Shown: positions 6,961 through 21,004 of the stretch, piece by piece
How the letters are laid out: each line of letters begins with the position of its first letter
How positions within the stretch are numbered: the stretch's first letter is position 1
Source of the DNA: Escherichia phage SKA64
Direction: 5' to 3' (one strand)
Length of the DNA stretch: 64,000 nt
Sequence record: OM362897.1
Made by a program: the position numbers and the translations under genes
The notes under the pieces: generated by a model
What the model saw: only the letters and a program-made list of their open reading frames with translations
The model's database searches: none
Told to the model about the DNA's origin: nothing

Positions 6961-7284
6961 ATGAGATTTACAAGACAAGAGGTAGTTGTGCTGGACGAAG
7001 CAATGACAATGATCGTCTTTTACTATGAAGATATCTTCTGTGCAGCATATCATTTAAATGACATTCAGATTGAATGGCAGCAGATAGCATTCCTGTTGGA
7101 CAAGAGTAATCATTTGGATGGCTTTGAGTATTTGGAGTGGGATGGTGCAAAGGAAGTTAAAATTGTAGGGTTAAATCACGATCAGATTGTTGACATGCAA
7201 TGTAAGTTGTGTCATTATCAGTTCTCAAACAAAGTCAAACTCGAAAGGCAATTGGAGGTGGTTAAAGATGATAGCACTAATTAG
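6961..7284 (+). CDS. hypothetical protein (first gene of the plus-strand block)
   Basis: 107-aa ORF with RBS-like aggaggct upstream. Confidence 0.4.
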   Translation: MRFTRQEVVVLDEAMTMIVFYYEDIFCAAYHLNDIQIEWQQIAFLLDKSNHLDGFEYLEWDGAKEVKIVGLNHDQIVDMQCKLCHYQFSNKVKLERQLEVVKDDSTN

Positions 7285-8114
7285 TGAGAACCCAATCCTG
7301 GCAACAATTGTTCTGATTTTTGCCATGTGTGTGGTTCACGATGTTCTGGTAAGCTACTTTGACAACAAAGGAGGTAAGAAATGAAAGACGTTATTCAAAT
7401 GGTATTCCGTGTAACACTAGATGGTATACACGTTGTTAAAGGCACACAGAACTACACAGAAGCGAAAGAACACTTCTTAGAGTGGATTGATACATTGAAG
7501 ACACAAGATGTGTCCTACAGCCGTGTTACGCTTACTGGCGACCATACCCCAATCATGGAGTACGTAAAGAAATGAGCAACTATCCAATTACAGGCGTAAC
7601 CTATTCTTGTGTAGCAAAAGGTGGTTTATATACAGTAGTGGAATTTCCAAAACCTGCCGGAATATCTAAAGTGTTTGATCCTGTGGTTATCTATGAAGAT
7701 CTTAGAACAGGTCAACGTTACTGGAGATTTGTGAATGACTTTTTAGATCGTATGGAGGTAGTAAGTGGCGAAAACACCGAAGAAGTTATCAAAGCCAAAG
7801 AACGTTACTAAGAAACCGAAAAACGAGGTTCTCAAAGTAGCCAAATCAGTTCCTAAGAAAGATAAATTTGATACGGAGGCATTCGTCTTTGACACACCAA
7901 TCGAGAAGATTGAAGAAGCGTTGCAACGTCTTGAGGAGCAGGAGGCAGATCCAATGGCTGAACCACTCACGGCAGACCAAATTTATTGGTGGGGAATATG
8001 GACTTTGCAACTACCAGAAGCAAAAAGAAGAGGAATGACTTCAGTTCCTACTTGTGCAAAAGAAGCGGCTGTGTTAGGTTTGTATGAGAAATCTAAAAAG
8101 AGGAGCAAAAAGAA

Positions 8115-8396
8115 ATGATCAAGACTTTCCTGAAGTGTGTAAAAGCAACAGATAATGAGTGGTACTCTGGATTATTCACTGCTGGCAAGAAATACGAGAT
8201 CCTCAACGGGACAGGCAAGAAGTTTTCTCTCGTTGTAAACGATGAAGGCACGAAGCAAATGGTATTTGCTGAAAGTTCTGTTTATGGTATCTTTGAAGTA
8301 GTGCAAGAAGGCTCTCCAATGATTCTGGAGTATCATGGCACTAATAAACCATATACTGCTATGGATGTTATCAACAACAAGAGGAATGCAAAATGA
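8115..8396 (+). CDS. hypothetical protein
   Basis: 93-aa ORF, start overlaps the stop of the upstream ORF. Confidence 0.35.
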   Translation: MIKTFLKCVKATDNEWYSGLFTAGKKYEILNGTGKKFSLVVNDEGTKQMVFAESSVYGIFEVVQEGSPMILEYHGTNKPYTAMDVINNKRNAK

Positions 8397-8774
8397 TTTT
8401 ACTCTATTCCGGTAAGGCAAAATACATGCAAGGTGTTAAACGTGTAGAGGTTACTAAGACAGTAACAATCGGGAAATCTTTTATCGTTTATTATTTCCTT
8501 GTTAATGGGAAGGAGTATGCTGTAGCAAAGACCTTGGTTGATAAGGGTAAAACGTGGAAAGTGGAGGCACTATGATCCCTGTAGCTGGATGGGTGGTATT
8601 GGCAACACTTAATGGGAATGTTACTGTGGAGACTAAAACCATCTTCAAAGCACCAGAAGATTGCTATAACTCCTTGGTAACTTGGCCTCGTGATGAGGAT
8701 GATAAGGCAGAGTATCATTGTTTTTACATTGAGGGTAAGCCTGTAGAATTTGAGGTTAAAGTGAAGGAGGAAAA

Positions 8775-9245
8775 ATGAGAATTAAAGTAACTAAAGCTTA
8801 CGATGATAACCCGAAGTTTATCTCTTTGAATAAGAGTTATGGTGTCGAAAACGGCGATGAGTTCGAGGTTATCGATCTTTTTGAGGATCACGGGTATATT
8901 GTCAAAGCCCCAATCACAGAGCAGGCTATTATCATCTTACGTACAGAGGCTGTTGAGGTAGGTTCTGATGAACCTCAATATGAAAGCCCATACATGACAG
9001 AGTGGATTGTGGCTGTAGATGTTGGAGGCAGGGTTTCTGTATTGAAAGCTCCTAATCTCCATCCTAGTTTTACAGAGAACGGTTTGACAGCTTTGGATTA
9101 CGGGTTGCCAGAAGATGTTGAGAATACACCGCCAGGTATGTACCGTTGGATTTGCTCTTTCCATGAAGAGAAGGATTGGGAATCAGGGCTTGTAGATGAT
9201 TGGCATTTTGAAGTGGAGAGTTCTTTTTTAATCATGCCAGCTTAG
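8775..9245 (+). CDS. hypothetical protein
   Basis: 156-aa ORF with RBS GGAGG, tightly packed. Confidence 0.4.
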   Translation: MRIKVTKAYDDNPKFISLNKSYGVENGDEFEVIDLFEDHGYIVKAPITEQAIIILRTEAVEVGSDEPQYESPYMTEWIVAVDVGGRVSVLKAPNLHPSFTENGLTALDYGLPEDVENTPPGMYRWICSFHEEKDWESGLVDDWHFEVESSFLIMPA

Positions 9246-9255
9246 AGGAGGTTAT

Positions 9256-9864
9256 ATGAAACTTGTGCACGGTGTTGGTGTTAATGATGCAAACTATCCG
9301 ATCAGGGTGCAAGATAAGGTTACGGGGAAGAGAGTCATGTGTCCTTTCTATCTAACATGGTCAAATATGTTAGGCAGGTGCTACCTTAAAAATAAGAGAT
9401 TTGAAGCTTATACAATGGCAGAAGTTTGTGACGAATGGAAGATCTTCAGTAACTTCAAAAGCTGGATGGAAAAACAAGATTGGCGGGATAAATTTTTAGA
9501 TAAAGATATCCTCTTTGAAAATAATCTTATATACTGTCCAGAAGCGTGCATTTTTGTTCCTCGTGAAATAAACAATTTCATTGTAGCAAGGAAGCCACAA
9601 AGGGGAGAGTGTTTGATGGGAGTAAGAACAAAAGGTCCATCTTTTGCTGCCAATTGCAGAGATGGGATTAAGGATACTCTTGTTTACCTTGGAACCTTCC
9701 CTACACAGATTGAAGCACATATGAAATACTTAGAGTATAAACTACAACTTCTTAGAGACTTGATTAGAACCGTAGAAGATGATAGATTACTTTTAGGATT
9801 ACGAAGAATTGAAAATAAGATAATCTTAGCCTTATCTTCAAAAACACCAATAGAAAGTTTTTAG
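9256..9864 (+). CDS. AP2-domain DNA-binding protein, possible homing-endonuclease-associated
   Basis: Segment GVRTKGPSFAANCRDGIKDTLVYLGTFPTQIEAH looks like an AP2 domain of the kind found in phage HNH-AP2 endonucleases. No clear nuclease motif seen. Confidence 0.4.
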   Translation: MKLVHGVGVNDANYPIRVQDKVTGKRVMCPFYLTWSNMLGRCYLKNKRFEAYTMAEVCDEWKIFSNFKSWMEKQDWRDKFLDKDILFENNLIYCPEACIFVPREINNFIVARKPQRGECLMGVRTKGPSFAANCRDGIKDTLVYLGTFPTQIEAHMKYLEYKLQLLRDLIRTVEDDRLLLGLRRIENKIILALSSKTPIESF

Positions 9865-9872
9865 GGGGTTAT

Positions 9873-10217
9873 ATGAAAGTTTGGATAGATGATATGAGGA
9901 ACCCAGCCGACTACGGACAGGCAGATGCAATTTGGTTTAAAACGTCACAAGAAGCTATGGCGTTTCTCAATGATCCTGCTAAACTGTATCGAAGAGTAAC
10001 CGAGTGGTCCTTTGACAACGATTTGGGTGAAGATTCTGACCAAGATGGGTATGATGTTTTCCTGTGCTTGGAAGAACTTCTGGCGTTTGGTAAACCTTGC
10101 TTTGGTTCACCTACCATTTTCGTGCATACTTCTAATCCCGCCGCTGGGGATAAATTCATGCTTGCAAAAGAATCCATGCTGCGTTATGGTATTAAAATGA
10201 TTCGTGTGCACTATTAA
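9873..10217 (+). CDS. hypothetical protein
   Basis: 114-aa ORF in the operon-like array. Confidence 0.35.
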   Translation: MKVWIDDMRNPADYGQADAIWFKTSQEAMAFLNDPAKLYRRVTEWSFDNDLGEDSDQDGYDVFLCLEELLAFGKPCFGSPTIFVHTSNPAAGDKFMLAKESMLRYGIKMIRVHY

Positions 10218-10376
10218 GGAGAGAACATGCATCATTCGGTTTGGTCGGAACAAGAAGAGGACGAAGGTTATTTTATCTACCGAGAAGAAGAGGATTGGCC
10301 CGACACAAGTAATGATCTTTTACTTCCAGATACTAGTTTTATCGAGGATAACTTAAGAGAGGAGGATTAGGAAACA

Positions 10377-10733
10377 ATGAGTGGTATTGAAAACAATATT
10401 TGTTACCAACCTCTTACCTGGATGGGTGAGGGTCATTATGCGCAACGTGTTATCGTCTGTGCTGCAAATAAGTATATTTTGAATAATGGTGAAGAGTTAA
10501 TTATTCCTTGTGTTCGACATGCAAATCCTGTATTATCTGCACAATTGAACGTATTGAAAGAAGCAGGTGTTCTTGATAAAGTGCATTGTCTTCCAAACAA
10601 TCAAGGTTTTATTGATCAATACTACAATTGGTGGAGTCGTGAAGATGCATACATTATTGCAAAACACGCAGACCAGATTGACTACGAACGTAATGGTCAT
10701 GATCGTGACCTATTTAGCGAGGGATTATACTAA
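10377..10733 (+). CDS. hypothetical protein
   Basis: 118-aa ORF. Its stop overlaps the next gene's start. Confidence 0.35.
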   Translation: MSGIENNICYQPLTWMGEGHYAQRVIVCAANKYILNNGEELIIPCVRHANPVLSAQLNVLKEAGVLDKVHCLPNNQGFIDQYYNWWSREDAYIIAKHADQIDYERNGHDRDLFSEGLY

Positions 10734-11284
10734 TGTTTATTACAAGCGATTTGCATTTTATGCACAAACGTATACGAGAGTTTGCTCCTGAATATCGACC
10801 GTGGGAAGATATGGACCACATGACAGAAGCACTGATCGAAGCATGGAATAAATGCGCTACGAGTCCAGGTGTCAAGATGTGGCATTTGGGTGACTTCTGT
10901 TTCGGGACTGAAGAAGATACCCGTAAGATTGCTTCCCGCCTCCAAGGTGATATCACTTATTGTGTTGGGAACCATGATTACAGCAAACACCGAGAAGTGC
11001 TTGCAGAGTATGGAGAAGTGGTGTATTATGACGAAGTGAAATATCAGAAGCTGTTCTTCGTCTTAAGCCATTACCCTATGGCCTCCTGGAATAAGCAAGG
11101 TCGTGGATCAATCATGCTACACGGGCATTCCCACGGATCTTTCCCTGATGAAGCTTATGGTAAAATGTTAGATGTGGGTTGGGATGCACACGGAAAAATC
11201 TTACATTTTGATGAGATAATTTCTATGATGAGTAAACGAGATATCGTAACTGTAGACCATCACAAAATAATCAAAGGAGAGTAA
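10733..11284 (+). CDS. calcineurin-like metallophosphoesterase (candidate RNA 3'-phosphatase)
   Basis: Motifs SDLHF, GDF, GNHD, GHSH. Sits directly upstream of the RNA ligase and kinase genes. Confidence 0.6.
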   Translation: MFITSDLHFMHKRIREFAPEYRPWEDMDHMTEALIEAWNKCATSPGVKMWHLGDFCFGTEEDTRKIASRLQGDITYCVGNHDYSKHREVLAEYGEVVYYDEVKYQKLFFVLSHYPMASWNKQGRGSIMLHGHSHGSFPDEAYGKMLDVGWDAHGKILHFDEIISMMSKRDIVTVDHHKIIKGE

Positions 11285-11285
11285 T

Positions 11286-12218
11286 GTGGCTAAATTTAAT
11301 TGCGACGATTTAGTTGAAAAAGGTTTAGTTCATAAGAAAACATATAAAGAAGGAGAGTATTCTGGTCTATCTGTTCTTAAGTATAAGAACAAAGTTTTCT
11401 GGGATAACCTATGGAACATTGATTCTCGTCTTCTAGAATGTCGCGGAATCGTTGTTGACGCTGATGACAATGTTGTTATTTGGCCTTTCACTAAGATTTT
11501 TAATCGTTTTGAGAATGGCACAGATCTACCAGCGGATGAATTTGTAGATGTTGTTCGTAAAGTAAATGGTTTTATGGCCTCTGTAGGTGTATATAAAGGT
11601 CAACTTATCGTATCGACAACAGGAAGCCTTGAATCAGATTTTGCAAGTATTGCAAAGAATCGTATTGTTTCAGAGTGCGATGACATAGAACATTTCATCA
11701 AATGGACAGAGAGTGCAAAAGCAACTTTCCTTTTTGAAATCTGTGATCCTTCTGATCCGCATATTGTCGAAGAAGAACCAGGTGCATACTTAATTGGTGC
11801 CAGAATTCAAAATCCTGACGGGACAAGTTTTATGTTACCTGAAGGTGCTCTTGATGGAATTGCTTCTGTCACCAAATTTAAGCGTCCTGAAGTTCATCCA
11901 ATGGTTAAGTTTTCAGATGTTGTTGAAATGTCTAAACATTGTAAACACGAAGGGTTTGTAGTTCGTGAAACAAACTATCCGTTCAACTTACTTTTAAAAA
12001 TTAAATCACCACACTATCTTACTAAGAAGTTTCTTATGCGCGGTGGAGATAAAAAGTGGGATCTGATTTGGGATAATCCACAAAATGCCAAACAAATTGT
12101 TGACGAAGAATATTACGCTTTGTTAGAATGGATTCGAAATAACTTTACGAAGACTCAATGGGCTGCTTTAAATCAGCAAGAGCGACGTGAAAAAATCGAA
12201 AACTTCTTTGGAGGATAA
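11286..12218 (+). CDS. RNA ligase, T4 Rnl1-like
   Basis: LLECRGIVVDADDNVV, PFTKIFNRFEN and lysine motif VRKVNGF resemble T4 Rnl1 (from memory). GTG start. Confidence 0.6.
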   Translation: MAKFNCDDLVEKGLVHKKTYKEGEYSGLSVLKYKNKVFWDNLWNIDSRLLECRGIVVDADDNVVIWPFTKIFNRFENGTDLPADEFVDVVRKVNGFMASVGVYKGQLIVSTTGSLESDFASIAKNRIVSECDDIEHFIKWTESAKATFLFEICDPSDPHIVEEEPGAYLIGARIQNPDGTSFMLPEGALDGIASVTKFKRPEVHPMVKFSDVVEMSKHCKHEGFVVRETNYPFNLLLKIKSPHYLTKKFLMRGGDKKWDLIWDNPQNAKQIVDEEYYALLEWIRNNFTKTQWAALNQQERREKIENFFGG

Positions 12219-12623
12219 ATGAAACAACTTATCATTTTACGTGGCGTTTCAGGTGCTGGTAAATCTACGGTAGCAGAAATTATTTCTGAAGGTTATTGGC
12301 CTATCTGTGAGGCAGATCAATATCATTACACAGAAAGTGGTGTTTACGATTGGAAGCCAGAAAATGTAGGTAAAGCACACGCATGGTGTCAGAGTATTGT
12401 TCGTGATGCTATGGCATCTAATCTTAACAAGATTATTGTTTCTAACACTTCAACCACAGAGAAAGAACTTAAACCTTATTTAACTCTTGCTGAAGAGTTT
12501 GGTTATCAAGTTATCTCTTTAGTTGTTGAAAATAGGCACGGTAATGATTCAATTCACGAGGTTCCACAATATATTCGTGATCAGCAAGAGAAGCGTCTTC
12601 GTGGTTCACTTAAACTTCAATAA
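12219..12623 (+). CDS. P-loop polynucleotide kinase-like protein
   Basis: N-terminal Walker A ILRGVSGAGKST. Size and context match a 5'-kinase module of a Pnkp-type repair set. Confidence 0.55.
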   Translation: MKQLIILRGVSGAGKSTVAEIISEGYWPICEADQYHYTESGVYDWKPENVGKAHAWCQSIVRDAMASNLNKIIVSNTSTTEKELKPYLTLAEEFGYQVISLVVENRHGNDSIHEVPQYIRDQQEKRLRGSLKLQ

Positions 12624-12632
12624 GGAGAAATA

Positions 12633-12956
12633 ATGCAGATTTATACAGATGATCGTAAATATGAGACAATTTTAGATGAAGATACTGGACGAATTACCGT
12701 TCTCCGCCACGGTGAAGAGTGGCGTGATGAAACGGGAGATAATTACATCTTGTCTCTGATTCATCTTATTGAACAAATGCGCGATGATTACGCTGAACTC
12801 CATTATGAAAATGAGGCGAATAAAGTAAAATTTGAAAATGAGTTAGAAGAGAAAGAATCCGAAATGGTATATCTAAAAGAAGAGATCTCTCGTTTGGAGG
12901 AAGAGATTGATGCTCTTCAGGAAGAGATTTACGAACTCATTAAGGACGGATTATGA
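12633..12956 (+). CDS. hypothetical acidic coiled-coil protein
   Basis: 107-aa ORF rich in E/L heptad-like repeats. Confidence 0.35.
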   Translation: MQIYTDDRKYETILDEDTGRITVLRHGEEWRDETGDNYILSLIHLIEQMRDDYAELHYENEANKVKFENELEEKESEMVYLKEEISRLEEEIDALQEEIYELIKDGL

Positions 12957-13144
12957 AAAAAGATATCGTTGTTGTTGGTTGGCTGACTTGCCCTTGTGGT
13001 AGTAATGACATAACTGTAAACACAGAGGGTGATAAAAATTATTTATTCTACGGTGATAAAATCACTTGCAATACCTGCGGACGTGTTGGTATTATAGAAA
13101 CCGATGATTGCTGCGTTTTTGAATCTTGGGATGAAGATGAATGA
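12953..13144 (+). CDS. hypothetical zinc-ribbon protein
   Basis: 63-aa ORF with CPCG...CNTCG. Confidence 0.35.
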   Translation: MKKDIVVVGWLTCPCGSNDITVNTEGDKNYLFYGDKITCNTCGRVGIIETDDCCVFESWDEDE

Positions 13145-13349
13145 GTACTGCATTTTATGTTCGTAGTGGGGACGAGGATTTTCTAGCTACTTTTGATGAC
13201 GGTGATCTTGAAGATATGTATGAAGATATGTTTGACTATGCCAAAGGGCAAGGTTTCACAAGCATTGATTATATGTTGGCAACATCTACAACGTTACTCG
13301 ACGCAGATTTGGATGAAGTGTGTAACAGATTGAAAATTTCAGTTTTTAA

Positions 13350-14477
13350 ATGGGAGGACTAATGCAACAAACAAATCAAACGCTGTATGGTAAAGATTCA
13401 AAAGGAAAACTTAAACAGTGGACAGTGTATACAGATGGTGCAGTTGTTACTGTAGCTCATGGAAGGGTAGGTGGAAAAATCACAGAAAAATCTTATACAG
13501 CAGAAGCAAAAAACATTGGTCGTTCCAATGAAACAACACCGGAAGAACAAGCTGAACTTGAAGCTTTTGCCAAATGGACAAAACAGTTAAAGAATGGCTA
13601 TTATAAAACAAAAGAAGAAGCTGAAAACCATGTTCCTTCCACACCAATGAAATGCCAGGATTATAAAGATTATCCTGAAAGGGTTGTGTTCCCTGGTTAT
13701 GCACAATACAAACTGAACGGGTTACGTTCTATGATTAACATGAAAGGGGAGTGTTTATCAAAAGCTGGGGAAGTGTATAACCTGCCACCTCATTGGAAAG
13801 GTATTCCAAACTTTATTAGTGAAGTTGTTGGTCATCCTCTTGATGGTGAAGTGTTTGCTGGGTTAGGTGTCCTTAGTCTGCAACAAATTAACAGTGCCTG
13901 GAAGAAGCATAATGCAAATACACCTTTGCTGAATTATTACGTATATGATATTCCAGTTCCAGATCTACCGTTTGAAAAACGTGTTGATGTTCTTGCTGCT
14001 CTTAAGGCAGTAGTTGAAGATTATGGTCTTGACGAGCTTATTTGCGTAGTTCATACAGAGTATATTGAAAACCAAGAACAGTTTGATGCTTTCTATGAAA
14101 AAGCTTTACTTGAGAAAGCTGAAGGTGTAGTATATCGTAATGCTCACGGAGTTTACGAATTTGATAAACGTTCTTATGACGTTATTAAACGTAAGCCTCG
14201 CCACACCCTTGAAGTTAAAGTAACAAATTCAAAAAGTGATAAAAATGGTGATGGAGTGTTGACAGGTGAGATGGAAAATGGTAAAGTAGTCGAATTCTTA
14301 ATGCGTAAAGATGCTCATGAGACTATCAATTATCGTAAAGCAGAGAATGCTTCTACCTTGATTAATCAGTTCGTTGAAATAGAGTATGAAGAATTTTCAG
14401 ATGAAGGTATTCCAACAAAACCTGTTGGTGTTCGTATTCGAGAAATGATCCCAGGCACTTGGGAACCAGCAGAATAA
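13350..14477 (+). CDS. ATP-dependent DNA ligase (nucleotidyltransferase superfamily)
   Basis: Motif I-like KLNGLR, and a C-terminal GVVYRNAHGVYEFDKRSYDVIKRKP segment resembling T7-type ligase motif V (from memory). Confidence 0.55.
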   Translation: MGGLMQQTNQTLYGKDSKGKLKQWTVYTDGAVVTVAHGRVGGKITEKSYTAEAKNIGRSNETTPEEQAELEAFAKWTKQLKNGYYKTKEEAENHVPSTPMKCQDYKDYPERVVFPGYAQYKLNGLRSMINMKGECLSKAGEVYNLPPHWKGIPNFISEVVGHPLDGEVFAGLGVLSLQQINSAWKKHNANTPLLNYYVYDIPVPDLPFEKRVDVLAALKAVVEDYGLDELICVVHTEYIENQEQFDAFYEKALLEKAEGVVYRNAHGVYEFDKRSYDVIKRKPRHTLEVKVTNSKSDKNGDGVLTGEMENGKVVEFLMRKDAHETINYRKAENASTLINQFVEIEYEEFSDEGIPTKPVGVRIREMIPGTWEPAE

Positions 14478-14869
14478 GGAGGAAAAATGTTCTTAGCCAT
14501 TTTAATCGTTTTCAGTGTGCTTTCTTTTTATTGTATGAATGCTTCTGAAAACTTTCCTAAGAATTCAAAGAAAAGAACCATATGTGTTGCGATTGATTCA
14601 TGTATGTCTGGAGTTGGGTATGCGGTAGTTTCTTGTTTCTTAGCTTATCATTGTGCAAAATACCTGGAGGCATTTTTATGATAATTTTAGCAACAATTCT
14701 TATGATGTTGATAGCAATTGCTATTGTAATTCTGGCATCTTTTCCGGCGGATAAATGGTATTTCAATATTCCACGTATGCTTGTTTTCGGTTTCGCAGGA
14801 ATTTACATGGGTGAGACTGTAGTAAATATTAGCAACTTTCTAGAAAGCTATTTTAAATAAGGAGTTATA

Positions 14870-15595
14870 ATGATCGAGAATTTTTTTAAAGATATTAAAT
14901 TCGATATTGAATTTTTCAAAAATGCAGCAAAGCACGTAATTGATTGGAATGCCAAAGCACGAGGTGGTGAACAACCTGAATTCACTCAAGAGCTATTTAT
15001 GTCCCAAATCGGGTTCGTTCGTGAAGAGCTTAAAGAGTATGAAACAGCCGCGAAAGTAAACGATCATGTAGAACTCTTGGATGCAGCAGCGGATATTTTT
15101 GTAGTATCCAGTTATCTTACTTACATGTTCTTTGGTGAAGAACATACGATGAATTTCTTGGACTATGCTGTAGGCGATGTTTTTACTCCAACTGTGTATA
15201 CTGATTTTGATGCTTTGGAACAAACATTTACAGAGCCAGTTCAAATGGCACTAATGGCTGCTGGTATTATGCGTATGTCTCGTGACACTCTAATCCGTTC
15301 AAAATATCCAGAAAAGAAAGTTATTAAAGAGGTATTGAAAAGTAATGATTCCAAGTATCCAACTAAACAACAGTTGCTGAAAACTTGGAAAACTTCGGAT
15401 ATCGATTCAGCCATTGCACAAGAATGCGCTGCAATTGAAGAACGAAATGCCAATCGTCCAGAAGGGGCATACACTGGTGTTCATGCTGTTTATAATGAAA
15501 AACAGAAAGTATATGTGTTCTTTGATGATAAAGGTAAGATCATGAAACCATCGACCTTTGTCAAACCTAATATTGCAGGTATTATTAACAAGTAA
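14870..15595 (+). CDS. putative MazG-like nucleotide pyrophosphohydrolase
   Basis: Acidic pattern REELKEYE...LLDAAADIF in a helical context. Weak assignment. Confidence 0.3.
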   Translation: MIENFFKDIKFDIEFFKNAAKHVIDWNAKARGGEQPEFTQELFMSQIGFVREELKEYETAAKVNDHVELLDAAADIFVVSSYLTYMFFGEEHTMNFLDYAVGDVFTPTVYTDFDALEQTFTEPVQMALMAAGIMRMSRDTLIRSKYPEKKVIKEVLKSNDSKYPTKQQLLKTWKTSDIDSAIAQECAAIEERNANRPEGAYTGVHAVYNEKQKVYVFFDDKGKIMKPSTFVKPNIAGIINK

Positions 15596-15651
15596 TGTTG
15601 TAAGCCGCCCTTTATGGGCGGTAATGTGAGATGTATTAAATAGGAGGAAAC

Positions 15652-16530
15652 ATGTTTGTAAAATCTTTTAAATCCGCTCTGCCTATGGTTGTTGGTGACA
15701 ATGCTTCTGTAGCATCCCTTAACAGCATTACAGATATTCCTCTGGAATTTGTAACAGCAGAAGGCTCCCAGTCACACACTATCGGTCTTGTTCGTTTCGA
15801 AGATGACTCTAAATTTGTAAAAGAGTTTTCAGACCTTGAACTGCTTAATGTAGGTCAATCTGTGAAGAAGGTAGATAAAAAGAAAGTTAAACGTATTTTG
15901 AATGAACGTCTAGAAGAAATGCGTCAGGACATGGAGAGCGAAGGTAAAGAGTTTTATGTCGATAAAGAAGTAGTCAAAGCAATGAAGGAAGATATTGAAT
16001 TTGCACTATTGCCTGAAACAGAACCTGAAGATTTTTTTAACTATGTTGTCTTGGATAAAACTACGAATCTTCTTTATGTTCTTAATGGAAGTAAAAAGGT
16101 TGCAGAAGAGATTACTTCTTTCCTCCGTTCCGTTCTGGGGACTTTCCCTTCGGTAGGTTTTAGTGTGCATGAAGAAGCTATTGTAAAAGGTTTTGGTGAA
16201 TTGCTGGAGAATCACGAAGCAGATCGTATTACTCTCGGAAATTATATCAAAATGGAGGATAGCGAGGGCGTTGTTGTTTGGAGTAAAGAATCCCTATACG
16301 AGTCTAAAGCTGTCGAACTAAAAGAAGATGGTAAAGATGTTGTTGCAATCGGTCTTGAATATGACGGTGTTGTAGATTTTGTAGTGGATAAAGAGTTTAA
16401 ACTTTCTAAACTACGTTTTCCGAAATATTTTGCAGACGAAGAAGGTAGTATTGAAGCTTCGGTCCTTCTGTGCTTCAATGAGATTCGAGGTCTGATGGAA
16501 GATTTAACCAAAGCAACAATCCTTAAATAA
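15652..16530 (+). CDS. RdgC-like recombination-associated protein (tentative)
   Basis: About 290 aa. C-terminal DFVVDKEFKLSKLRF resembles the RdgC C-terminus recalled from E. coli. Confidence 0.4.
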   Translation: MFVKSFKSALPMVVGDNASVASLNSITDIPLEFVTAEGSQSHTIGLVRFEDDSKFVKEFSDLELLNVGQSVKKVDKKKVKRILNERLEEMRQDMESEGKEFYVDKEVVKAMKEDIEFALLPETEPEDFFNYVVLDKTTNLLYVLNGSKKVAEEITSFLRSVLGTFPSVGFSVHEEAIVKGFGELLENHEADRITLGNYIKMEDSEGVVVWSKESLYESKAVELKEDGKDVVAIGLEYDGVVDFVVDKEFKLSKLRFPKYFADEEGSIEASVLLCFNEIRGLMEDLTKATILK

Positions 16531-16534
16531 GTTC

Positions 16535-16563
16535 TTGACTTGCGGGATTAGTTATGATATTAT
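16535..16563 (+). promoter_or_regulatory. sigma70-like promoter
   Basis: TTGACT, 17-nt spacer, TATTAT. Followed by hairpin GCCTACCT...GGTAGGC-TTTTT at 16564-16592. Confidence 0.4.
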
Positions 16564-16602
16564 GCCTACCTACTTAATGAGGTAGGCTTTTTAGGAGGCG
16601 TT

Positions 16603-16812
16603 ATGAAAAAGATTCTGACAGTCGTTCTTTTAGCTTTTAGTTTCACAGTAGCAGCAGGTCAAATTACTTTAATCTTGTCTGATTCTGAAGTTAATGGCAA
16701 TACAAAATATTGCTACTATTCTAACGCTAACCAAGATGAAGTTATAGCAATCCCGAAAAGTCGTCAATGTCCGTATACTAAAACATTCTCAACAGAGGAT
16801 GACGATGAATAA
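16603..16812 (+). CDS. small secreted protein with signal peptide
   Basis: 69 aa, N-terminal MKKILTVVLLAFSFTVAAGQ, two Cys, acidic C-terminus. Confidence 0.45.
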   Translation: MKKILTVVLLAFSFTVAAGQITLILSDSEVNGNTKYCYYSNANQDEVIAIPKSRQCPYTKTFSTEDDDE

Positions 16813-17253
16813 TTAGGGGGAAATATTAGCGGTTATATTTTAATTAAACCTGAAGATCTTCATTTATATGTCAACGAAGAAACAATAGCTGCAATTGATT
16901 ATGATCAGATCGCTTTCCAAGCAGCGTCTGCATTAGAGAAAAGAACAATCATTGCGAAGCACATCCCTTCAGGTGCTCAAAAGGAATTTAAAAATAAGAC
17001 AGAGTTTTGGGGTAAAAGCAAGACTAAAATTGGAGGTTGGCTAGGAGATACAAATGCAGAAAGAGCCTCCAAAAACAAACGTCCCTTCACAAAGGAAGAG
17101 TTCGAAATCATTGATAAGCAATACCCGCCAGAAGATATCGGACACACCTTCCAAGCAGCTAAAACAAAAGTCTTAGGTATTCTAAAACATCTACGTTTAG
17201 AAAAATATTGCGGAGTTATTGGCGTAGGAAAAACTTTCAGACACGCCTTCAAA

Positions 17254-17943
17254 ATGCCTGTAGAATATAAATCTGAACGATTAGATATCAAACCACTTCA
17301 GCTTTCAGAAACCAAAGATTATCTTGTGGAGTTCCACAATGGTGATGTTGTTACTGTAATAGAAGCTGATGATGAGTTAGAGAAGTATGGTTTCCAAGGT
17401 TATAAAGATTATAAAAGGACGGGTAAATTTTCTTATATCGTAGTATCTATAGATAAAGATAGTTTACATACTCCTAGTATCCTTTTTAATTTCTACAAAG
17501 AGGATGGAGTATTTAAAAATCCAGATATAATTCTTATTGACGAGTCTATTGGCGATATATGGATCGTAGATAAAGGTAAAAAGAAAGAAGTTAAAGGTTG
17601 GGGCAGTTACTGGTTAGCATACCAGATGCTAATGGGAGATAAAACAGATAGTATCCGACCTTATCAAGATTTTGATATTAAGTTCGGAGATATTACTTGT
17701 TTTAATCTTCTTTCAGCTTGTAAAACTCAAGCAGAACTTTTCCAAACAGTTAAAGATACTTACTACTCATGGTTCCCAGATGGTGTTAATTTTACTTCTT
17801 GGGATGGAGAAGAAGTCCATATGACAACAGATGAATGGATAGAAACAATTTTCCAGTTGGTATACATGAAACGCTGGGATAATGACGATACAACATTTGA
17901 GAGTATGCTTCAGTCATACATCTCGCAACAGGAGGCAGAGTGA
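17254..17943 (+). CDS. T4 RNase H-like 5'-3' exonuclease (FEN family), ATG-delimited part only
   Basis: VIEADDE, IVVSIDKD and LMGDKTDSIRP match FEN/RNase H motifs. The conserved N-terminal region appears to be encoded upstream in the same frame (see findings). Confidence 0.55.
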   Translation: MPVEYKSERLDIKPLQLSETKDYLVEFHNGDVVTVIEADDELEKYGFQGYKDYKRTGKFSYIVVSIDKDSLHTPSILFNFYKEDGVFKNPDIILIDESIGDIWIVDKGKKKEVKGWGSYWLAYQMLMGDKTDSIRPYQDFDIKFGDITCFNLLSACKTQAELFQTVKDTYYSWFPDGVNFTSWDGEEVHMTTDEWIETIFQLVYMKRWDNDDTTFESMLQSYISQQEAE

Positions 17944-18899
17944 GCAGATTAACAGAAGAGCAGAAAGCAGATATCCTTAGTATGAGTGCAGAGGGTATGT
18001 CTTCTCGCAATATTGCAGCAATTGTTTTAGGTAGTCCAACAAGAAAAAGCACAGTGAACGATTTCCTTGCACGATTCGGAGCAAGTAAACAAGAGCCAGT
18101 TAAAAAGAAACAACCAGTTATTAAAATTATTGATGTTGAAACTGCACCAGAGATTGCATATACTTTCCGTCGATTCAAAGCCTTCATTTCTCCAGATCAA
18201 GTAATTCGTAGGGGTTATTTGTTATCTTACTCTTCTGCTGACCTGTATACTGGTGAAGTGGAAGGTAAGAACTTGTCTTCTTATCCTCTTTTTGATATTG
18301 ATCATACAGATGATTGGGAGCTTTGCCAAGATCTTTGGAACCTTCTGAATGAGGCAGATGTAGTTGTGGCACACAACGGATATAAGTTTGACCGTGCATA
18401 CATTAACCAACGATTTGCATATCACGATATGGCTCCTCCTTCTAATTATGTAGTTGTTGATACATTGAAGGCAGCTAAGAAACAATTTGCACTTCCTTCC
18501 AACTCCCTTAAAGAAATGGGAGCATATTTCGAAACAGAAAGTGAAAAACTGGATAACGAGGGGTTCCCTTTATGGAAAGCATGTTGTGAAGGTGATCGTG
18601 ATGCTTTTGAACGTATGCAGATTTACAATGATGGTGATGTTGTTTCACTCCGTGATTTGTATATGAAAATCCTTCCGTGGATTCCACAGCATCCTAACTT
18701 ATCCGCTTATTACCCAGATGAGAAGGTCCGTTGTTCTCGTTGTGGCAGTGATCACGTTCACGTCGTTACTGGTAAACAATACCACACTGCGGTAAGTTCT
18801 TTCGATATCATTCGTTGTGAATCTTGCGGCGGTTTGTCACGTAGTAGAGCAAACACCAGATCCAAGGATAAACGAGCAGCAACTATCATTGGAATCTAA
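17940..18899 (+). CDS. DEDD-family 3'-5' exonuclease with N-terminal HTH and C-terminal zinc ribbon
   Basis: IDVETA, VVAHNGYKFD and YNDGDVVSLRDLY exonuclease motifs, plus CSRCGS...CESCGG. Confidence 0.5.
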   Translation: MSRLTEEQKADILSMSAEGMSSRNIAAIVLGSPTRKSTVNDFLARFGASKQEPVKKKQPVIKIIDVETAPEIAYTFRRFKAFISPDQVIRRGYLLSYSSADLYTGEVEGKNLSSYPLFDIDHTDDWELCQDLWNLLNEADVVVAHNGYKFDRAYINQRFAYHDMAPPSNYVVVDTLKAAKKQFALPSNSLKEMGAYFETESEKLDNEGFPLWKACCEGDRDAFERMQIYNDGDVVSLRDLYMKILPWIPQHPNLSAYYPDEKVRCSRCGSDHVHVVTGKQYHTAVSSFDIIRCESCGGLSRSRANTRSKDKRAATIIGI

Positions 18900-18905
18900 T
18901 AATCA

Positions 18906-18930
18906 GGGAGCTTATTGCTCCCTTTTTTAT
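18906..18930 (+). terminator. rho-independent terminator
   Basis: GGGAGC-TTATT-GCTCCC followed by TTTTTT. Confidence 0.6.
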
Positions 18931-18958
18931 TGACAAAAATTTTATATTAGTGTATACT
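18930..18958 (+). promoter_or_regulatory. sigma70-like promoter
   Basis: TTGACA, 17-nt spacer, TATACT, just after the terminator. Confidence 0.5.
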
Positions 18959-19205
18959 CTGCTAACCACAATAAAAGGAGGAAATATGAGCATTACATTA
19001 ACAGGTAACGAAATTTTCGAACTGTTTGAAATGTTAGGTCTAAACTATACCATCGAGAAAGACCCAGATTTACTTGACGTTGAAATAACAATTCAAGAAG
19101 ATACAGCAATCTACAATGATGATGGTGATGTTATCTATCAAGGTAGGGTAGCTTATTATACAGACTACCCAGAAGAAGGCGCAGTAGGAATTCAGGAGGA
19201 AAATT

Positions 19206-19607
19206 ATGTCTAATGCTTTTGATAATCAGGTTGACGGTGATCACTACACAAAAATGGCAATGCAACCTATTGAACTAGCTTATTTGGTTGGTGGCACACC
19301 TTGTTTTTGCAAATTGGCAAAATACGCAACACGTATTAAAGGTGAACGTCAGATTAACCTAGATAAAGCTATTCATTGTATTGAACTAGAAAGAACTCTT
19401 ATGCAAAATAACACGTATATGGTTCGTGAAAATTATCCATCTATGACAAATGCAGCTAAACATGATCAAGCTATGCTTCTTATTGATTTCTTCACAAAAG
19501 ATCCTTTAGTACGAGTAGCACTGAAACACATGTATAACTCTTCTTATGTAGATGCAATCGAAGCTATTAAACAACTTAAGGAACGTATTAGTGGCGAGCA
19601 ATACTAA
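19206..19607 (+). CDS. hypothetical protein
   Basis: 133-aa ORF overlapping the upstream stop. Confidence 0.35.
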   Translation: MSNAFDNQVDGDHYTKMAMQPIELAYLVGGTPCFCKLAKYATRIKGERQINLDKAIHCIELERTLMQNNTYMVRENYPSMTNAAKHDQAMLLIDFFTKDPLVRVALKHMYNSSYVDAIEAIKQLKERISGEQY

Positions 19608-19774
19608 ACAATATGGAGCAGGAGAAGTTTATAAAATATTCAACCGAAAAGGTGATAAACTTTTACTAACTTTGACTATTCCAGAAACAATGTGCAAGGC
19701 GGGGTTAGACCGCCTTTTGTTTTTTAAACACAATATCCCACCAGGGGAATATACAGCTAAAAAGGTGAGCAATA

Positions 19775-20350
19775 TTGGCAGGTGAACCAAAAATAATGTG
19801 GGGTGAAGGAACACCCTGGAAAACACAAGCTGAATTTTATACTTATCTTAGGGGATGTTTTAGAAAAGCATGGATGAGACACCCTAATAAAATTAAGGTT
19901 ATCAATGCAAGGCGTTTTAAAGTTGATCGTGTAGATAAAGACGGCAATGTGATGATAGACAAGAAAACTGGAAAACCAAAACAAGTTTGGAATTGTGAGT
20001 GCGAAATATGTGGACACAGAGGAGGAATGAAAGACTTCCAAGTGGATCATATTCACGCAGCAAAACAACTTCAATGTTTTGAGGATATTCCCCTTTTTGT
20101 TTTCCGTTTGATCTATGTGAAAGAAGAAGATTTGCGAATGGTTTGTAAATTGTGCAACTCTATTCTTGCTTATGCAGACAAGCAAGGCATATCTTTTGAA
20201 GAGGCAAAAGCTGAAAAAGAAGCGATAGCTTTGTGTAGAGCTAAGAAAGATAAAGCGTGGCTGAAGAAGCGTAAAATAGAACCTGAAAGCACAGTAGCAA
20301 AACGCCGTAAACAAATAGTCAAAATCCTATTGCAGGAAATTGAAAGTTAG
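19775..20350 (+). CDS. HNH endonuclease
   Basis: CECEICG...QVDHIHA...CKLCNS: two Cys pairs bracketing a DH...N core. Confidence 0.5.
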   Translation: MAGEPKIMWGEGTPWKTQAEFYTYLRGCFRKAWMRHPNKIKVINARRFKVDRVDKDGNVMIDKKTGKPKQVWNCECEICGHRGGMKDFQVDHIHAAKQLQCFEDIPLFVFRLIYVKEEDLRMVCKLCNSILAYADKQGISFEEAKAEKEAIALCRAKKDKAWLKKRKIEPESTVAKRRKQIVKILLQEIES

Positions 20351-20386
20351 TATAAGATAACTATACTAAAAGAGAGAGGAGGTTTT

Positions 20387-20995
20387 ATGCAGATAGTATG
20401 TGATTGGGATTTAGTTGTGGCTCCATTAGATGTTGCTTGGTTAGAATGGTTGAATAAGATTAGTGGACTTGGTGTTAAGATAGACACATTCACAAAAAAT
20501 GCAGACTATGATCTTACCAACTACTTTCCTGGTTTCAGGGAGGAGTTCAATATAGATCCTTACGGATTTCTGGATAATCCTCATCTCTATGATACAATGG
20601 GTTTTGTTCCAGGTATGCCAGATTTCTTAAAGTATGTTTCAAGGAAAGGTAGCAATCTTTTGATCGCAAGTGTGACAAAAGGTGGTCACTTAAGTTCTAA
20701 ACATAAGCATGTTTTAAGAACATTAGATACGATTGATTTTAGCAAAGGATCTGGCAACGGCTTTTTTGCTACGAAAGAAAAATACTTATTGCCTTGTGAT
20801 ATAGCAATAGATGACAGGGCTGATAACCTACTATATTTTCCAGATGAAGTGGTTAAAATATATTTTAATACGCCTTATAAAGATAACCATCTAGAAGAAC
20901 TAAAGAAAAAACCAAATGTTGTGATCACAGGTTTAGAAGATCAGTGGCTAACATGTTTGGATGTTTTTAACACTTTGAACAATTTTAAAAACTAA
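20387..20995 (+). CDS. HAD-like hydrolase, possible 5'-deoxyribonucleotidase
   Basis: N-terminal IVCDWDLVVA fits HAD motif I (DxDxV). Weak assignment. Confidence 0.3.
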   Translation: MQIVCDWDLVVAPLDVAWLEWLNKISGLGVKIDTFTKNADYDLTNYFPGFREEFNIDPYGFLDNPHLYDTMGFVPGMPDFLKYVSRKGSNLLIASVTKGGHLSSKHKHVLRTLDTIDFSKGSGNGFFATKEKYLLPCDIAIDDRADNLLYFPDEVVKIYFNTPYKDNHLEELKKKPNVVITGLEDQWLTCLDVFNTLNNFKN

Positions 20996-21004
20996 GGAGA
21001 AAAA

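Follow-up and report, generated by a model that had tools for sequence, protein, structure and literature searches.

A probably mobile, homing-endonuclease-like AP2 gene and a probably vertically inherited HNH nuclease gene in Escherichia phage SKA64

The 64,000-nucleotide stretch of Escherichia phage SKA64 analyzed here (sequence record OM362897.1; hereafter the window) derives from a phAPEC8-like myophage of the genus Phapecoctavirus, subfamily Stephanstirmvirinae. It carries two genes that a preliminary description had grouped as likely selfish elements: an AP2-type gene at 9256–9864 (gene A; plus strand, ATG start, 202 amino acids) and a separate HNH nuclease gene at 19775–20350 (gene B; plus strand, TTG start, 191 amino acids). 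We consider it probable that the two genes have different histories, gene A being a mobile homing-endonuclease-like gene of the IPA-HNH class and gene B a vertically inherited core HNH nuclease. The earlier observation is confirmed and its interpretation is half right, being partly supported: selfish behavior fits gene A, a 617-bp insertion with co-transferred flanks that is absent from the related records, and does not fit gene B, found in 132 of the 133 records that match it and in collinear order in 126 of 135.

Gene A is a recent acquisition that is missing from every catalogued relative. Region 8000–21000 of the window matches 128 phage records, the best of them at 97–99% identity, and the DNA of gene A is absent from all of these approximately 128 related records. 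No record in a collection of 50,697 phages covers 80% or more of the gene, the best DNA matches, in Pectobacterium, Yersinia and Vibrio phages, having 23–38% coverage at about 69% identity. In alignments gene A forms a single gap, an exact 617-bp single-gene insertion between a DUF8046 gene and the cREC_REC gene (PF20274, Pfam E 1.7e-16; 9873–10217, plus strand). The gene-order comparison proposed in the preliminary description revealed an insertion polymorphism at this site, the junction being uninterrupted in 63 of the 65 related records that hold it, and found gene B at a conserved position across genera. In the phages Schickermooser and 10C3_SA_NWU, the genes flanking the insertion site lie only 10 bp apart. 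Junction alignments place a 12-bp exact direct repeat, GGTTATATGAAA, at both ends of the insert, the left copy at the start of gene A (9250–9261, plus strand) and the right copy at the start of cREC_REC (9867–9878, plus strand), and genomes with an empty site have one copy. Because the repeat comprises the end of the ribosome-binding site (the Shine-Dalgarno end), the spacer and ATG AAA, gene A and cREC_REC both retain a translation start. At least 14 contigs from metagenomes or run assemblies encode an identical protein, in every case with the DUF8046 gene on one side and cREC_REC on the other, and the allele with gene A is therefore a circulating minority allele rather than an assembly artefact.

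Homologues of gene A in more distant phages keep the same right-hand neighbor. Proteins at 89% identity (contig L003, 139 kb) and at 50% identity (contigs L005 and L006, about 143 kb each) are encoded directly upstream of cREC_REC, their left neighbor being an RNA ligase gene; cREC_REC thus adjoins the gene A lineage in three diverged phage groups and is its likely target gene. The comparison with L003 demonstrates that gene A moved with flanking DNA between unrelated phage backbones. The window and L003 have in common a patch of about 960 bp (9210–10165) at 86% nucleotide identity, and the neighboring proteins of the two phages are only 47.5% (RNA ligase) and 28% (DNA ligase) identical. Identity is about 78–96%, mostly 84–92%, from 9250 to around 10050, falls to 58–72% in the 3′ part of cREC_REC and then disappears; gene A and some 140–180 bp of cREC_REC are common to the two phages. 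On the left, the 45-bp intergenic spacer of L003 derives from the 3′ end of the DUF8046 gene of the window, of which a relic of 46 bp is left. Synonymous divergence (dS) between the window and L003 is 0.51 in gene A and 0.49 in the co-transferred 5′ part of cREC_REC. On the side of the recipient, the window is 99.5% identical to the gene-less phage Mt1B1_P17 up to 9258 and again from about 10011 to about 10530; the foreign segment against this backbone, about 755 bp long, consists of gene A and about 138 bp of cREC_REC. This co-converted flank (9873–10010, plus strand) is about 67% identical to the Mt1B1_P17-type allele and 85–92% identical to L003. The evidence for mobility is unusually clean, and the pattern fits that of a putatively active selfish gene.

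Two further tracts near the insertion were considered and rejected. A candidate target or immunity patch at 10025–10037 (GGTGAAGATTCT, encoding LGEDS, versus GGTATGGAGTCA, encoding LGMES) was dismissed since the gene-less Mt1B1_P17 haplotype has the same allele, and a cluster of single-nucleotide polymorphisms (SNPs) in the left flank (9008–9101) is not a co-conversion tract, as the window and Mt1B1_P17 have 100% identity across it and the cluster arises because the Schickermooser and Mt1B1 backbones differ. The Mt1B1-type allele of cREC_REC, about 67% identical, has two small insertions and an N-terminus like that of the distant L005 lineage, marking a mosaic hot spot beside the insertion site.

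The product of gene A (phrog_953, E 7e-68) is 100% identical to the protein annotated in GenBank as 'putative DNA binding protein' of Escherichia phage SKA64. As judged from its sequence, it belongs to an already described class, the free-standing IPA-HNH/AP2 homing-endonuclease-like genes. Homology to Gp59 of phage ICP1 and the secondary structure of an AlphaFold2 (AF2) model delimit an N-terminal IPA-type domain (residues 1–116; 9256–9603, plus strand) composed of a beta-hairpin, four helices and a beta-beta-alpha unit. The latter (residues 79–109; 9490–9582, plus strand), with its invariant D82-K83-D84, N90, Y93, C98 and N106 and no histidine, is the putative catalytic center. An AP2/ERF-type DNA-binding domain, a three-stranded sheet packed on a helix, follows at residues ~118–172 (9607–9771, plus strand). 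The preliminary description had assigned an AP2-type segment to 9256–9864; the fold is present, confined to these residues rather than extending over the whole open reading frame (ORF). The window protein has no Pfam match even at E≤1 and does not reach the gathering threshold of PF00847. The AP2 family was matched by 12 of 29 homologues (best E 1.3e-5), and the family profile matched plant AP2 domains in the PDB (WRI1, E 9.6e-6; AtERF1, E 0.012). In the AF2 model (mean predicted local distance difference test score, pLDDT, 93.5), AP2 domains (ERF1, WRI1) were the sole specific structural matches. The AP2 fold is confirmed by family profile and predicted structure, not by single-sequence Pfam search. 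A hidden Markov model search, as proposed earlier, succeeded at the level of the families, for AP2 in that of gene A and for HNH in that of gene B, both window proteins being below the Pfam thresholds.

The N-terminal domain links gene A to the IPA-HNH class. BLASTP against ICP1 Gp59 gave E 2e-17 and 41% identity over 81 residues, and the two proteins have the motifs WxxMLxRCY and LDKDI...N..YCPE.C..VP..IN in common. Gp59 is a founding member of the IPA-HNH homing endonuclease genes, a class defined by the combination of a divergent HNH-like domain, undetected by Pfam HNH_3, with a C-terminal AP2 domain (Barth et al., 2023; PMC10448857). Correspondingly, HNH_3 matched neither the window protein nor any of the 29 homologues at E≤1, and Gp59 likewise has no Pfam match, which the canonical ICP1 gp80 has. 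A tblastn search with the N-terminal domain found 2,512 places in 1,459 phage records, including 115 Rheinheimera phage records, Pseudomonas phage KIL2 (six copies), ICP1 and Barbaviruses. Multiple copies of the family occur in Vibrio, Rheinheimera and Pseudomonas KIL-like phages, lineages that are among those rich in IPA-HNH genes, and enrichment has been noted in Barbaviruses and Flaumdraviruses (Barth et al., 2023; PMC10448857). Distant members occupy unrelated sites in other phages. Gene A has an intact ORF of a length typical for the family (about 190–215 residues), and the dN/dS ratio between the window and L003 copies is 0.11, equal in both domains, revealing purifying selection on both. 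Decayed split copies are known from Tenacibaculum phage PTm5 and from ICP1 (gp115/116).

Several relatives were encountered in passing. In PTm5 (L019:105–871), the member is present as two ORFs, the helices of the N-terminal domain in one and LDKD plus AP2 in the next, with an apparent frameshift, and it adjoins a helicase gene. A metagenomic Phapecoctavirus contig with gene A (L013) encodes a 201-residue paralogue at 1795–2400 (39% identity, LDKD motif, Pfam AP2), inserted between genes of 117 and 93 residues and overlapping both; the corresponding window position, ~8064–8096, is empty, making this a third insertion site of the family. Phage vB_EcoM_10C3_SA_NWU (L002:8145–8630) has an extra AP2 ORF of 161 residues (Pfam AP2, E 7.9e-7; 28% identity to gene A; motif variant LDRVN) between the pyrophosphohydrolase and RdgC-like genes, where the window (~15595–15652) is empty; this is a second polymorphic AP2-type site in the genus, and SNP density between the window and 10C3_SA_NWU is raised at 15400–15800. 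The window itself holds no paralogue of gene A detectable by tblastn with gene A, the L002 AP2 ORF, ICP1 gp59 or a canonical HNH_3 sequence.

The organization of gene A resembles that of other phage genes of this kind. IPA-HNH genes such as those for ICP1 Gp59, Gp115/116 and Gp209 have a homologous N-terminal domain invisible to Pfam HNH_3 and a C-terminal AP2 domain; they are free-standing, multi-copy in some lineages and found beside replication or nucleotide-metabolism genes at boundaries of genetic exchange (PMC10448857). Gene A differs from them as follows: it resides in a Phapecoctavirus coliphage, outside the lineages highlighted in that work; it lacks the N-terminal extension of about 85 residues present in Gp59; and it lies beside cREC_REC in an RNA-repair module rather than by polymerase, RNR or terminase genes. 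Canonical HNH(HNN)-AP2 enzymes (His-Me finger group 2, I-HmuI/HNH_3 type; Magnani et al., 2004) similarly combine a nuclease-type N-terminal domain with a C-terminal AP2 domain; unlike the gene A family, they keep the catalytic Asp/His and the DNR/NLRE/EN boxes, and no significant profile similarity was found between the two groups. In the Xanthomonas phages Xp10, OP1 and Xop411, HNH-AP2 genes are dispersed and variable in location, with degenerate copies, as in the gene A family, and a contrast was drawn there between these dispersed AP2-type genes and single-copy CxxC HNH genes in a fixed context (Lee et al., 2007; PMC2248197), a split that mirrors the one between gene A (AP2, mobile) and gene B (CxxC HNH, fixed). 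Plant AP2/ERF factors and the CasPR anti-CRISPR proteins also use an AP2 fold for sequence-specific DNA recognition; CasPRs combine it with a Cys-rich CapR domain in acr loci of Bacillota prophages (bioRxiv 10.64898/2026.02.23.707548), whereas gene A combines it with an IPA domain in a mobile insertion.

A precedent for the route of spread is provided by free-standing homing endonucleases of phage T4. The Seg and Mob genes are intergenic, presumably cleave in or near an adjacent conserved gene, and spread by recombinational repair with co-conversion. Gene A, like them, is inserted between genes and not in an intron; the T4 proteins differ in being GIY-YIG enzymes or HNH enzymes with a zinc-finger tail, and their cleavage is experimentally shown where that of gene A is putative. 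A comparable model for gene A would begin with co-infection, the AP2 domain recognizing a sequence in or beside the cREC_REC start of gene-less genomes. The N-terminal domain would nick or cut near the bound sequence, and the phage recombination machinery would repair the break off the gene-bearing genome, copying gene A together with its flank. Entry into an Mt1B1_P17-like Phapecoctavirus backbone would thus have brought the 617-bp cassette and about 138 bp of the 5′ end of cREC_REC.

Gene B, by contrast with gene A, is not polymorphic. The preliminary identification of an HNH nuclease at 19775–20350 holds: phrog_1985 ('HNH endonuclease') matches the protein at 6.8e-66, and the HNH core (residues ~70–137; 19982–20185, plus strand) is intact, with C76xxC79, D91-H92 and C124xxC127-N128 in invariant or near-invariant columns. 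The window protein itself stays below the Pfam thresholds (HNH, PF01844, E 0.027, 15.0 bits against a cut-off of 21.4; Endonuclease_7, E 0.033), and 19 of 39 diverse family members match Pfam HNH at E≤0.01 (best 1.5e-7). In the family alignment C76 and H92 are invariant even at a mean column identity of 26%, and conservation is 90% or higher at C79, D91, C127 and position 128, the last being N in this clade and H elsewhere. The best structural matches of the AF2 model (mean pLDDT 93.8) are T4 endonuclease VII, GVE2 HNH, Cap5, McrA and Gme HNH; a PDB sequence search returned weak zinc-finger and HNH matches only. Against junction-resolvase families we obtained E 0.033 for Endonuclease_7, E 9e-6 for phrog_2914, and PF02945 in one of the 39 members. 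The beta-beta-alpha-metal core with its CxxC...D-H...CxxC-N/H pattern is that of zinc-finger HNH nucleases (PF01844; T4 endonuclease VII, 1e7d; GVE2 HNH, 5h0o; McrA), and the CxxC-N ending is known from T4 endonuclease VII. Gene B differs from these enzymes in its extra conserved N-terminal helices (residues 1–69) and a C-terminal helical region with SAP-motif-like matches, and from packaging-associated HNH proteins in not lying beside terminase genes. For neither gene A nor gene B did NCBIfam or PADLOC return a useful match.

The distribution of gene B is that of a fixed component of the genome. The gene is present in 132 of 133 matching records, and a three-gene block (upstream gene, gene B and an NT5C-like gene) is collinear in 126 of 135, reaching phiWec-type phages (75% nucleotide identity), phi92/Justusliebigvirus (70%) and Klebsiella phages (66%). 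The gene begins with TTG inside the upstream ORF, an 11-nucleotide overlap that is also annotated in relatives. An exhaustive profile search recovered 1,345 cluster representatives, 162 of them at E≤1e-30, most being full-length matches of about 180–200 residues, and conserved helical N- and C-terminal regions flank the HNH core. Sequence and gene order mark gene B as part of the vertically inherited core of Stephanstirmvirinae-type phages and not as self-mobilizing. Its putative role would most likely be in phage DNA metabolism, for example on branched or recombination intermediates, in packaging or in other housekeeping cleavage.

The weakest part of our reading is the chemistry of gene A, and the following points weigh against a homing nuclease. 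D82-K83-D84 is found in 121 of 121 family members and N106 in 120, and no column of the N-terminal domain is rich in histidine across these 121 sequences, the canonical position of the catalytic histidine being taken by D-K-D. A histidine at that position was sought in the weakest homologues, from Bacillus, Salmonella, Acinetobacter and Tenacibaculum phages, all of which keep [LI]DKD. Pfam, NCBIfam and PADLOC detect no nuclease domain in gene A. An hhalign comparison of the family alignment with a 32-sequence HNH_3 alignment, built from ICP1 gp80 homologues with their invariant N-H-x-D...N...N, gave a probability of 0.15–0.35% (E 0.17–0.38), both alignments being shallow; the HMM-HMM link to HNH_3 reported previously (PMC10448857) was not reproduced, which weakens that claim without disproving it. 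Nor did the structural matches of the AF2 model reveal a fold-level link of the N-terminal domain to HNH, so that the nuclease motif support looked for in both genes exists for gene B and, for gene A, not in the form of a conserved histidine, profile or fold. We found no published biochemistry for the IPA-HNH class in the literature, and the cleavage or target site of gene A was not located. Finally, the first ~150 bp of cREC_REC exists in two very different alleles among gene-less Phapecoctaviruses, the Schickermooser/phAPEC8 type and the Mt1B1_P17 type, and, this region being mosaic even where gene A is absent, part of the exchange could be ordinary recombination. We infer a nuclease activity for gene A from family behavior and the conservation pattern.

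These points bear on three other explanations of gene A. One is that it encodes a sequence-specific DNA binder devoid of nuclease activity, a regulator, repressor or anti-defense protein of the CasPR/CapR type, and that its spread was due to ordinary recombination, homologous or illegitimate, at a mosaic hot spot. The GenBank label, the use of AP2 domains as nuclease-free silencers in phage CasPRs (bioRxiv 10.64898/2026.02.23.707548) and the mosaic 5′ region of cREC_REC in gene-less phages are all compatible with it. However, against it stands an N-terminal domain under strong constraint, with an invariant set of acidic, Lys and Asn residues on a beta-beta-alpha unit in phages of Proteobacteria, Bacillota and Bacteroidota, and gene A lacks the CapR-type Cys4 module; moreover, the family is multi-copy and site-variable with decaying copies, as is typical of homing endonuclease genes, and the same target-gene neighbor is kept in three diverged lineages. 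We regard this explanation as unlikely, though worth serious attention. A similarly small chance attaches to the idea that the IPA-HNH domain may not be a His-metal-finger nuclease at all, and that either an undescribed catalytic chemistry operates on the beta-beta-alpha scaffold or mobilization is nuclease-independent, for instance through tight AP2 binding that stalls replication and provokes recombination. Its basis is the invariant Asp-Lys-Asp/Asn/Tyr/Asn constellation, without histidine, in at least 1,459 phage records. That gene A is a dead homing endonuclease gene, decaying and no longer functional or mobile, is very improbable. The canonical catalytic histidine is missing and the window protein falls under the Pfam thresholds for AP2 and HNH, both in favor of decay, but D-K-D is invariant across the family, so that the absence of the histidine is ancestral rather than a sign of decay; the ORF is intact at the family-typical ~190–215 residues, both domains have a dN/dS of 0.11, and the gene circulates in identical form in at least 14 independent samples. 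Truly decayed copies look different, such as the split ORFs of PTm5 and ICP1 gp115/116.

For gene B, the competing explanation is that it too is a homing endonuclease gene, swept to fixation in the ancestor of Stephanstirmvirinae and kept at one site since. Its small HNH ORF stands free among replication genes, enzymes with endonuclease VII/HNH motifs can be homing endonucleases (F-CphI, cited in PMC10448857), and in phi92-like phages a thymidine kinase gene adjoins the HNH gene inside the matched block. We nevertheless find fixation of this kind improbable in the face of near-universal presence and collinearity across genera at 66–75% nucleotide identity, a divergence that tracks that of the neighbors, a start that overlaps the upstream gene, and a full-length architecture kept in the 162 representatives at E≤1e-30. 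Gene B has no appended sequence-specific DNA-binding module (AP2, NUMOD or zinc-finger tail), and its catalytic residues have been kept over long vertical descent, whereas a fixed homing endonuclease gene deprived of empty targets would be expected to decay.

Our reading of gene A as a mobile IPA-HNH-class gene and of gene B as a core nuclease has consequences for annotation: the plain label 'DNA binding protein' does not suit gene A, and an HNH motif alone is no ground for calling gene B a homing endonuclease. Gene A is a clean natural case of a nuclease-type mobile gene lying exactly at a boundary of genetic exchange, having moved with about 140 bp of its neighbor between phages whose proteins are otherwise 28–48% identical, and the transfer lies in an RNA-repair module, in a phage genus that serves in therapy and biocontrol work. 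The point of interest is that the whole IPA family is without the HNH histidine. SKA64 and its many gene-less sister phages offer a practical system for determining whether and how proteins of this class, devoid of a catalytic histidine, cut DNA.

Both genes lie within a long plus-strand block of early and middle genes and, as the preliminary description had noted, among genes of nucleic-acid metabolism (RNA ligase, PNK-like ATPase, DNA ligase, exonucleases, ThyX and RNR are nearby). The block includes an RNA-repair-like module at 9873–12623, consisting of cREC_REC, a T4_Y16D-like gene, a metallophosphatase, an Rnl1-type RNA ligase and a PNK-like AAA_33 ATPase; its other members comprise the DNA ligase, a MazG-like pyrophosphohydrolase, an RdgC-like protein, two exonucleases, an NT5C-like nucleotidase, ThyX and RNR. 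The SKA64 genome paper discusses neither gene A nor gene B (PMC10282059). In a scan of the surroundings of gene A, promoters and terminators were no more numerous than expected by chance, giving no evidence for a promoter of its own, and the GC content of gene A (36%, against 42–43% in its neighbors) is within the range of the genome and not decisive. GC skew changes sign at ~6900–7000 and ~43000, coinciding with switches in transcription direction, with the plus-strand block that holds genes A and B in between.

In the distant phages L003, L005 and L006, the RNA-repair-like set is rearranged, a SIR2-domain gene adjoining cREC_REC. Within the module of the window, a block of about 450 bp (10533–10980), in which the T4_Y16D-like gene ends and the metallophosphatase gene begins, is about 11% different (approximately 65 SNPs) from Schickermooser, 10C3_SA_NWU and Mt1B1_P17 alike, with flanks at 98–99%, and represents a separate recombination patch. 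Just 3′ of cREC_REC, an ORF of 47 residues (10227–10370) is missing in contigs L012 and L015, otherwise about 99% identical, and present in others. At ~12939, where an ORF encoding a 107-residue coiled-coil protein (12633–12956) joins the next ORF, Schickermooser and 10C3_SA_NWU have 16 extra bases relative to the window.

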